From a virus (taxonomy: Duplodnaviria > Heunggongvirae > Uroviricota > Caudoviricetes), in IMG/VR virus record IMGVR_UViG_2778261532_000008: a DNA stretch of 44,392 nt, one strand, 5' to 3'. Every line of letters starts with the position of its first letter. Position 1 is the first letter of the stretch. The position numbers and the translations under genes are program-made. Positions 39,079-40,775 of the stretch are shown here, in pieces. The notes beneath the pieces were generated by a model, which was given only the letters and a program-made list of their open reading frames with translations, was not told the DNA's origin and ran no database searches.

Positions 39079-39108
39079 AAATCCCGCCAATCGGCGGGAT
39101 TTTTTTTA
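39079..39108. terminator. bidirectional rho-independent terminator
   Basis: AAATCCCGCC-AAT-CGGCGGGATT followed by TTTTTTTT; convergent genes on both sides. Confidence 0.75.
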
Positions 39109-39894
39109 ATCGCTTTCCACTTCTTCCGTGGTGTTTTCTTGCAGTTCTGTTAATGCAGCACGACATAGGTTCCGGGCATTGGCTATAGCCACACTTTTGA
39201 CTTCATCCGTCATCGTGCAGGTAATGTACTGATCGAGTTCTTCAGCGTGGATGATGCTTTTGCCAATCAGAAACTGTATTTGCCAGAGCAGATCGGCATC
39301 CATAATCAGAATTTCTGCCGGGCCTTCAGGGCCAGCCGGGAAGGAAACATAAGACTGTTTGCCCAGGCCGATAACTCGACAACTTGCTTCAAGAATTGCG
39401 CGCTTGAGGTCTGACTTTGTAACTGAAACAGGTTGATTTTCACCTGCGATTACGCCGTTGACATGGATGTGGAAAGGCATGTAGCTTGAAATTCGCTCTA
39501 CTTTCCATACGCCAGCAAGCGATCCTTCATGCAGCACAATGGGGGTAACCGCGAGTTTCATCTCACCATATAACTGCTGGCAGATGGCTGGATTGCTGAA
39601 TACATCCAAAGGTTCACACTCAAACAGCGGCGCAATCTGCATGAGGTCCATCATGGTCATACTAGGGGTACGAGCAGTAATGAATCTGCGCATGCCAGTA
39701 TCCATTGTGCGCCAGATAGCTACACCATGCTTTTTGCTCACTTCTTCAGTAAAGCCAAGGTGGCACATGATGGTTTTTTCGATAGCCAGATCAGAGATAG
39801 AAACCTTTTCGCCAGGTACACCATCATTATTGATGGTCACTTCGACACTCTGGCCATTACGCAGGCGGTATTGAATTGCTTTAGTATTTTCCAC
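39106..39894 (-). CDS. hypothetical protein (P1 isaB position)
   Basis: 262-aa ORF; no motif recognised; 6 bp from upstream gene, no IS1 between them. Confidence 0.5.
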   Translation of the reverse strand: MENTKAIQYRLRNGQSVEVTINNDGVPGEKVSISDLAIEKTIMCHLGFTEEVSKKHGVAIWRTMDTGMRRFITARTPSMTMMDLMQIAPLFECEPLDVFSNPAICQQLYGEMKLAVTPIVLHEGSLAGVWKVERISSYMPFHIHVNGVIAGENQPVSVTKSDLKRAILEASCRVIGLGKQSYVSFPAGPEGPAEILIMDADLLWQIQFLIGKSIIHAEELDQYITCTMTDEVKSVAIANARNLCRAALTELQENTTEEVESD

Positions 39895-39900
39895 GTTAAA

Positions 39901-40578
39901 TCACTCCACTACAAACCAGTCACATGCCAGTAAGTCGCATACAGAAGGCACCCACGGAACAACTACACCTTGTGCATTTTTTAAGGCGAAATAAGCACCA
40001 TACGGAACGAGGTCGCCGGGGAAATATCCCTTAATGGCTTCCATTCGTGCCGGGTACTGTCCTTCAGGAACCAGCCAGCAGAATTGGTTTTCGCCGTTCC
40101 ACCCGCGTCGAGCAACTTTCTTGCCATCCTTCAGCCACATCAGCGCGTCAGAAAAGTCGGCTGCTTCAAGGTCGATTTCTTCTTGTGTGGTAATGATGCC
40201 ACTGGCAGCAATAGTTACGTCCCTGGCTGTAATGAATGTCACCCCATTGTGACCTTCAATACTGAGCGATACCCCATTTTCGAAGAAGTCGTTAGTCCGA
40301 CTAAAGCCTTCTTCAAATGTTTTTTCTGGTGAATAGGACAGAGATCCGTCCTCATAAGCGACCAGATATCCGCCAATTTCTGGTCGGTGTTTTTGCAAAA
40401 ACATTTTATCAACATGGACTTTTACCCCTTCTGGCTCAACGACTTCGATGTTGCAAAAAAGGACCACATCCATTAGGGCGATAATTTCGATATCTTTGAT
40501 TTTTGAGGCGCGAACTGTTTTATGGCTTTTGTATTTTGGAAGTGCCGTCAAAAGCTCTTTCGTTGTCATGTTATTCAT
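39901..40578 (-). CDS. two-domain protein with C-terminal DUF2829 (Tad2-like) domain; ORF could extend to 40746 but ATG 40578 has the best Shine-Dalgarno
   Basis: C-terminal block ALMWLKDGKKVARRGWNGENQFCWLVPEG...GVVVPWVPSVCDLLACDWFVVE matches my recollection of the DUF2829 signature; GAGGAAAG before ATG 40578. Confidence 0.55.
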   Translation of the reverse strand: MNNMTTKELLTALPKYKSHKTVRASKIKDIEIIALMDVVLFCNIEVVEPEGVKVHVDKMFLQKHRPEIGGYLVAYEDGSLSYSPEKTFEEGFSRTNDFFENGVSLSIEGHNGVTFITARDVTIAASGIITTQEEIDLEAADFSDALMWLKDGKKVARRGWNGENQFCWLVPEGQYPARMEAIKGYFPGDLVPYGAYFALKNAQGVVVPWVPSVCDLLACDWFVVE

Positions 40579-40775
40579 AGTCTTTCCTCTGCTTAAAACC
40601 TGATGTATTGCGCCTTCAGGTGGGTCAGGAATGTTTTCCCACCAGCGAAAGCAATATCTCGGGGTGTTCTTTTCGTGAAAAGCGCGTGCCATTGCCAACT
40701 TTGGCGTTTGTTTGCGAGTTCGTGCTTTTGTCGGCGTCTGGACCACCGCTTTTCTTTCAGTCGTTTTTTACACAT

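Follow-up and report, generated by a model that had tools for sequence, protein, structure and literature searches.

Seven families of sponge proteins, with which viruses sequester immune signals, have been described, namely Tad1, Tad2, Acb2, Acb4, Sequestin, Lockin and TadIV-1 (PMC13243611). Some of them occur in multi-sponge fusions (Tad2-Acb4, Tad2-Sequestin and Sequestin-Acb4), and Sequestin itself was discovered by the criterion of being fused to a known sponge (10.1101/2025.07.12.664507). MoTad2, a stand-alone protein of 88 residues from a Myroides odoratus prophage (also ModTad2; PDB 8V3E and 9EIB), holds His-ADPR and cUMP/cCMP in separate pockets and inhibits Pycsar (10.1101/2024.01.03.573942; 10.1101/2025.08.24.671296). 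In Dec, the decoration protein of phage L (PDB 6E3C), an OB (oligonucleotide/oligosaccharide-binding) domain forms the capsid-binding legs and a C-terminal stalk protrudes (PMC6449081). Here we describe a gene of a P1-like (Punavirus, IncY) phage-plasmid that brings homologs of MoTad2 and Dec together in one protein. It is located on a 44,392-nucleotide stretch of viral DNA, IMG/VR record IMGVR_UViG_2778261532_000008 (the window), whose closest database match is the E. coli plasmid pMB2910_2 (NZ_CP103741.1) with 99.9% identity; there, the gene and its neighbor isaA are labelled 225-residue 'DUF2829 domain-containing protein' and 'hypothetical protein' in RefSeq. From its sequence and its setting we consider it probable, although by no means certain, that the 225-residue product is an early, C1-repressed, two-module counter-defence protein. 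The gene and its parts are as follows.

39901-40578, minus strand: two-module gene (Dec-like OB domain, linker and Tad2 domain), 225 amino acids, stop codon included in the coordinates
39904-40164, minus strand: Tad2/DUF2829 domain of the MoTad2 type, residues 139-225
40165-40290, minus strand: linker, residues 97-138, beta-rich, possibly a Dec-like stalk
40291-40578, minus strand: N-terminal domain, residues 1-96, predicted OB fold, phrog_11049 family, homolog of the OB domain of Dec

The C-terminal 84 residues match PF11195 (Tad2-like) over profile positions 2-73 of 73 with an E-value of 5.7e-23 and a score of 81.7 bits, the cut-off being 25 bits, and a phmmer search against the PDB returned MoTad2 (9eib/8v3e; 6.6e-20), AcrIIA7/HgmTad2 (2.4e-10), SPO1 Tad2 (3.9e-9) and SptTad2 (3e-8). 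In its fold, too, the domain is of the Tad2 type. The alignment with MoTad2 shows 45.5% identity and a single one-residue gap, which implies insertions of equal length after strand beta2 in both proteins, while the alignment with HgmTad2 contains 16 gapped columns. The motifs of the ADP-ribose (ADPR) pocket are kept, GWNG as well as W209..S212..D215. In detail, W21/N22/G23, W87, S90, T92 and D93 of HgmTad2 correspond to W160/N161/G162, W209, S212, C214 and D215 in the window, and mutations have shown W21/N22 and S90/T92/D93 to be important in HgmTad2 (10.1101/2023.11.15.567273). The motif W-V-P-S-V-C-D matches the WTPSVSD of MoTad2 rather than the WLASQTD of HgmTad2.

By sequence, the nearest characterised relative is thus MoTad2, a sponge for type II Thoeris/His-ADPR and for Pycsar, and not the gcADPR sponge of SPO1. 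The original prediction, made from the DNA letters without database searches, had assigned the C-terminal ~85 residues to DUF2829, called them Tad2-like and linked them to gcADPR-type ligands. The domain assignment is confirmed by the hidden Markov model search and by the sequence matches to the MoTad2, AcrIIA7/HgmTad2 and SPO1 Tad2 structures, and the link to the Tad2 sponge family holds as well, but the closest relative is of the His-ADPR and not of the gcADPR type. By analogy, the ligands are most likely those of MoTad2 (His-ADPR; cUMP/cCMP), and we regard it as likely that the domain acts as a MoTad2-type sponge that sequesters some immune nucleotide. Note that MoTad2 is a stand-alone protein, whereas the domain in the window makes up the C-terminal third of a larger one, and that at pocket position 214 MoTad2 has a serine and the window protein, to which ligands are assigned by homology only, a cysteine.

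The central insertion of the Tad2 domain (39970-40090, residues ~165-205) occurs in at least three unrelated versions among P1-like relatives, EGQYPARMEAIKGYFPGD..., DKQGASRLTPIKHA..ELEINF... and AGSVNLHGI...., while the flanking Tad2 residues are near-identical. In HgmTad2 the equivalent region lines the cyclic-dinucleotide pocket. The Tad2 half as such is routine and already known: UniRef and RefSeq name such proteins, and their presence in P1/D6 elements is published, a DefenseFinder survey having reported Tad2 in 56% of P1-type and 93% of D6-type phage-plasmids (10.1101/2025.09.12.675607, a 2025 preprint). The new findings are that the N-terminal domain can be identified and that it is systematically linked to sponge families.

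In a predicted monomer model, residues 11-96 form a small beta-barrel with a pLDDT of 82-93, and the linker of ~40 residues after residue 96 has a pLDDT <50, its fold not being modelled. A profile of the N-terminal domain built from 20 homologs found phage L Dec as its sole match in the PDB (6e3c, E 9.7e-7), and a second profile, from 138 far more diverse proteins, again retrieved Dec alone (E 1.2e-5). The two domains share 25% identity over 99 aligned residues and the stretch P-E-[IV]-G-G-Y-L...L.Y.S..A-F-E..Y. On the model and these profiles, the N-terminal domain is a Dec-like OB fold. The ~140 N-terminal residues had at first been set apart as a separate, unrecognised domain; separate the domain is, but it can be recognised, as a Dec-like OB fold plus linker. 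As in Dec, the OB fold is N-terminal and is followed by a beta-rich segment. Unlike the window protein, however, Dec lacks the most conserved residues of the family as well as a Tad2 domain, and it is a late virion protein on P22-like capsids, whereas the window gene comes from an unrelated myovirus and is part of an early operon there. The linker, rich in beta structure and with a period of 8 residues, aligns, weakly and in one profile only, with Dec residues ~90-122; that it is a stalk like that of Dec, a trimeric three-stranded beta-helix, is a weak possibility. It is also exchangeable, with beta-rich or helical alternatives in homologs, and the P1-like relatives are mosaics in which the N-terminal domain comes in several variants and the linker in helical and at least two beta-rich forms.

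The N-terminal domain belongs to phrog_11049, a family annotated as 'unknown function'. It matched neither a model of Pfam, NCBIfam or PADLOC nor any sponge structure of the PDB; a search of the viral fold library returned Tad2-like proteins only. When 1.84 billion representative proteins, clustered at 50% identity, were searched with HMMER, 5,051 clusters passed E<=1e-3 and 2,829 passed E<=1e-10. The majority of members stand alone, with 83-160 and usually 85-105 residues, and the family extends over T7-like, P22-like and jumbo phages as well as phage-plasmids. Its signature is L-P-x-Y-x-C-H-K-x-V-x-A-x-K-I ... K-H-x-P-x-x-G-G-Y-x-V-x-Y-x-D-G-Y-x-S-Y-S-P-A-x-A-F-E-x-G-Y. Dec aligns to the family but has kept neither C-H-K nor Y-x-D-G-Y-x-S-Y-S-P, and for this reason looks like a divergent offshoot of it. 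In phage L (1692-2845), dec follows the lysis genes, orf118 and orf129, and the 39-kilobase genome of E. coli phage Bas106 (2501-2788) encodes a stand-alone, 95-residue protein of the family at the corresponding position behind its own lysis genes. As this ordinary member takes the place equivalent to dec, the comparison suggests an accessory slot, occupied in other phages by such a protein, as the place where Dec arose.

Members of other architectures were also encountered. Among the top-ranked matches are six giant proteins of 1,781-4,559 residues (P0141, P0142, P0156, P0159, P0225 and P0269), each with 11-28 stretches of partial similarity, mainly to the G-G-Y...S-P..F-E hairpin-helix region. 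The domain is further found inside a 394-residue MazG-like pyrophosphatase (phrog_37613; BFVD A0A384WK77, Vibrio phage KF6) and, on one viral contig, joined to a DUF4406/nucleoside 2-deoxyribosyltransferase-like domain. In both cases the partner is an enzyme that handles nucleotides.

The functional reading of the N-terminal domain rests on its fusion partners. A Pfam scan of the 138 best members found Sequestin (PF21825) in 16, Tad2 in 12, Acb4 (PF13876) in five and the Acb2/Tad1 hairpin (PF24729) in three, all of them established families of immune-signal sponges (10.1101/2025.07.12.664507; PMC13243611). Only three other Pfam families co-occurred, each in one member, bringing the total to seven. 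The domain strings include N-domain+Tad2+Sequestin, N-domain+Sequestin+Acb4 and N-domain(x2)+Acb4. Close relatives join the same Tad2 domain to dUTPase or to Sequestin, and a fused dUTPase-Tad2 protein of 241 residues is present in other E. coli elements (P0056). It weighs against these figures that the top-150 list came from a profile of Tad2-fused proteins, which may inflate the count for Tad2, though not those for Sequestin, Acb4 and Acb2. An independent sample, a scan of viral contigs seeded with stand-alone members, contained 15 credible fusions, two with Tad2, one with Acb4 and one with the DUF4406/nucleoside-deoxyribosyltransferase-like domain. The 91 small open reading frames flanking genes of the family comprised two for Acb4, one for Acb2/Tad1 and one for Mom, and these sponge counts, although small, are far above what one would expect from random phage genes.

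Like the described multi-sponge fusions, the window protein has a linker that joins Tad2 to a small phage domain, the N-terminal domain is itself found in such strings, and close P1-like relatives carry Tad2 together with PF21825. Unlike in those fusions, the partner lies outside the seven described sponge families, and only the Tad2 module comes from a family with proven sequestering activity. Two of the seven were considered as identities for the N-terminal domain and rejected, in part on the basis of published descriptions: Lockin, a hexameric beta 'cog' that is absent from sequenced phage genomes, and TadIV-1, a two-helix Straboviridae protein (PMC13243611), neither of which was matched in the PDB; identity with Acb3, which lay outside the comparison, is possible. 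We came across no paper that connects an OB fold with sponges. As it has no Pfam model, the domain is invisible to Pfam-based fusion screens, the one that led to Sequestin included, and yet it occurs in thousands of phage lineages.

The surroundings of the gene bear on when it would be expressed, and contain the following further features.

35782-38769, plus strand: ddrB-like gene
38759-39076, plus strand: hxr homolog, far border of the variable slot (phrog_2292, E 5.7e-62; named hxr in SJ46 and P1)
39081-39100, no strand: G+C-rich hairpin between the convergent isaA and hxr, from folding energies
39106-39894, minus strand: isaA ortholog, 262 amino acids, GTG start (95% identity to P1 IsaA; phrog_2326)
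40579-40775, minus strand: untranslated leader of 197 nucleotides, common to P1, containing GTG 40746
40776-41264, minus strand: ssb, first gene of the operon (Pfam SSB, E 6.9e-40; arrangement identical to P1 ssb)
41284-41300, minus strand: C1 repressor operator Op(ssb)/Op21, ATTGCTCTAATTAATTT, 5' of ssb (exact match)
41392-41991, plus strand: lyz

The longest reading of the DUF2829 gene is an open reading frame of 281 codons on the minus strand (39901-40746), and its start, GTG 40746, is the one given in the original prediction and used by the annotators of P1 and of Salmonella phage SJ46. We reject this reading because the extension is a leader that is also present in P1. The 56 codons upstream of ATG 40578 recur in P1 without a single base change; there they are read as part of isaA and annotated as the N-terminus of IsaA. 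In a three-way alignment the DNA of the window, SJ46 and P1 is identical up to the ATG; P1 departs at the next base, and the window and SJ46 stay together. ATG 40578 is preceded by GAGGAAAG, the PHROG 872 alignment begins at its methionine, and both the RefSeq product (WP_001376910.1) and the gene callers have 225 residues. Judged from these sequences, the gene almost certainly starts here. The spacing of 6 base pairs to isaA noted before is exact (TGA at 39901-39903, GTG at 39892-39894), and the statement that no insertion sequence separates the two genes is likewise borne out.

The match to the C1 operator is exact, with 0.01 expected by chance, and the ssb promoter/operator region is identical to the annotated region of P1. 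A promoter scan of the leader turned up no promoter-like site, no Rfam family matched it, and its folding is unremarkable (z -1.25). The GTG of isaA follows 6 nucleotides past the stop codon of the Tad2 gene, with a GGAG within the end of the latter, and isaA is probably co-transcribed with this gene and translationally coupled to it. The hairpin at 39081-39100 was missed by the terminator scan and confirmed by folding, with -17.1 kcal/mol (z -4.4) on the minus strand and -21 kcal/mol (z -6.0) on the plus strand, there followed by eight U; it is probably a terminator in both directions. From the P1 annotation and the operator and leader sequences we infer that ssb, the Tad2 gene and isaA form a single C1-repressed early transcript. 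Early timing suits a sponge that is needed before the signal builds up.

The reading of the product as a two-module counter-defence protein builds directly on the domain homologies, the predicted fold, the motifs, the operon context, the mobility of the cassette described below and the fusion statistics. With the C1-repressed ssb promoters driving both ssb and this gene, its product would appear once repression lifts or upon entry into a new cell. The Tad2 domain, by homology a tetramer, would sequester ADP-ribose signals derived from TIR proteins, most likely the His-ADPR of type II Thoeris, and its second, insertion-lined pocket may bind the cyclic pyrimidine mononucleotides of Pycsar. With the signal sequestered, the host effector would stay silent. 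The N-terminal domain would most likely bind a further small-molecule signal and turn the protein into a dual sponge. In this scheme the oligomeric state, the ligands, the time of expression and any activity against host defences are predictions.

A counter-defence role of its own for the N-terminal domain is suggested by the fused members of its family, which are joined almost exclusively to known sponge domains, and we hold this view tentatively, a little short of even confidence. With slightly more reserve still, we propose that phrog_11049 may be a new and very widespread counter-defence family, acting either as a further sponge or by binding a conserved component of immunity, with Dec as an exapted offshoot. 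If true, this would provide an evolutionary origin for Dec, an odd OB-fold decoration protein. If the domain turned out to bind a signal or a sensor of immunity, it would be a major addition to the small list of viral sponges, and possibly a reagent for fishing unknown signalling molecules, as MoTad2 was for His-ADPR.

Several observations weigh against this picture. The argument for the N-terminal domain is one of guilt by association, while most members of its family stand alone and some of these map to regions for head morphogenesis or late functions; in Ralstonia phage GP4 the gene has the portal gene on one side and the major capsid gene on the other, and in P22-like phages it takes the dec position. 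Its sole characterised homolog, Dec, binds capsids and not nucleotides, and there is no obvious match between the symmetries of Dec (trimer) and Tad2 (tetramer). Early expression is inferred, in that it follows from the P1 annotation. In the Tad2 domain, C214 (39937-39939) occupies the position of HgmTad2 T92 and of a serine in MoTad2; most relatives have a glycine here, and in a 37-sequence alignment cysteine occurs only in the window protein and the relatives have Gly, Asp or Ala. The specific ligand is a guess from the nearest relative. Finally, 19 of 84 tested sponge homologs were inactive against all seven systems (10.1101/2025.08.24.671296), and homology therefore guarantees neither activity nor ligand. 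These inactive homologs, together with a Cys or Gly instead of Ser or Thr at pocket position 214, would also fit a DUF2829 domain that has no role in counter-defence, for example because it is an inactive relative or binds some housekeeping nucleotide; c-di-GMP, which serves E. coli as a housekeeping signal, is bound very tightly by HgmTad2 (10.1101/2023.11.15.567273). We nevertheless regard such an explanation as quite improbable, given that the domain shares 45% identity and the core motifs with a sponge validated by experiment, that the pocket-lining insertion is hypervariable among near-identical P1-like relatives, as an arms race would give, and that the gene is positioned in a variable accessory slot beside the Dar anti-restriction genes.

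For the N-terminal domain the main rival, and an attractive one, is that it serves as a Dec-like capsid-binding module that tethers the protein to procapsids or capsids, where it might mask a surface sensed by TIR sensors, concentrate Tad2 at the source of the signal, or be a plain decoration protein. Dec is the only solved homolog and binds the capsid with its OB domain, a stalk attached (PMC6449081), the periodic, beta-rich linker can be partly aligned to this stalk, and the stand-alone homologs in the GP4 head module and in the dec position would fit as well. One stand-alone homolog is annotated as a capsid decoration protein, and major capsid proteins activate Thoeris TIR proteins (PMC12578639). 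However, the two motifs lost from Dec mark it as a divergent offshoot, and their conservation across phages with unrelated capsids and of different sizes is better explained by a universal small ligand or a host target. In addition, the gene lies in the early C1-controlled ssb operon and not behind a late promoter, and P1 virions are reported to be without decoration proteins (PMC9024508), though P1 itself has no Tad2 gene. On balance we find a capsid tether unlikely. No better supported is the proposal that N-terminal domain and linker are a mere oligomerisation or scaffolding handle for Tad2 and recognise neither a ligand nor a target themselves, in spite of the fact that the Tad2 domains of close relatives are joined to other oligomeric modules (dUTPase, a tail-fibre repeat), that beta-rich and helical linkers are freely exchanged, and that known sponges rely on homo-oligomers (10.1101/2025.07.12.664507). 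A pure scaffold role is unlikely because most family members stand alone and, with their sharply conserved polar and aromatic motif, appear to function autonomously; Tad2, moreover, tetramerises by itself.

The two-module gene is part of a variable region. In P1 the gene order is ssb-leader-isaA-IS1-isaB-hxr, and in the window and in SJ46 it is ssb-leader-DUF2829-isaA-hxr. P1 shares with the window the flanks, the C1-controlled ssb operon, the leader and isaA, but has no DUF2829/Tad2 gene, holds nothing at the junction of leader and isaA, and carries IS1 and isaB between isaA and hxr. The original placement of the gene in the slot where P1 carries IS1 was thus only loosely right: the DUF2829 gene lies between leader and isaA, and IS1 and isaB of P1 lie on the hxr side of isaA. 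We considered whether IS1 had disrupted a Tad2 gene in P1 and left isaB as a remnant, and ruled this out; IsaB is unrelated to both window proteins. In P7 (2652-3767) the ssb-hxr (odaA) slot contains the outer-membrane porin gene nmpC on the opposite strand, and the slot is for this reason a variable accessory one that takes quite different cargo. The slot adjoins the Dar anti-restriction genes.

In phage D6 (2767-4499) separate genes for dUTPase, a DUF2829 protein (146 residues) and an isaA-like protein lie beside cre/rox, at a quite different genome position. The D6 Tad2 segment has 97% DNA identity to the window, while the D6 IsaA has ~50% protein identity. With the pair at another site and its halves diverged to such different degrees, the Tad2-isaA pair behaves as a mobile cassette that has itself been recombined, as far as can be read from the sequences. 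In PLSDB the whole two-gene unit is present in 110 P1-like plasmids and a part of it in 455, mostly isaA alone. For phage-plasmids, the ssb-hxr slot would then be a hot spot for the exchange of modular counter-defence cassettes.

The partner gene, earlier described as an unknown 262-residue gene, is the ortholog of P1 isaA. Its product matches phrog_2326, sequence searches against Pfam, NCBIfam, PADLOC and the PDB were all empty, and the 20 homologs found are all from P1/D6-like elements. An AlphaFold model from 5 sequences reached a pLDDT of 38.9 and was left out of the fold search. The pairing of an isaA-type gene with a DUF2829 gene recurs at the separate site in D6.

Two further observations were made elsewhere in the window. 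Just 3' of lyz and the holin gene, a TnpB-type protein of 402 residues (42371-43579, plus strand) contains OrfB_IS605, Cas12f1-like TNB and HTH_OrfB_IS605 domains. Neither the near-identical pMB2910_2 nor P1 has a gene at this site, and because of this it looks like a recent insertion of the IS200/IS605 family. A second site resembling a C1 operator, TTTGCTCTAATAAATTT at 13993-14009 (minus strand), differs from Op(ssb) in two positions and is located 5' of the minus-strand genes at 12248-13923; many C1 operators, this one included, are expected in a P1-type genome.

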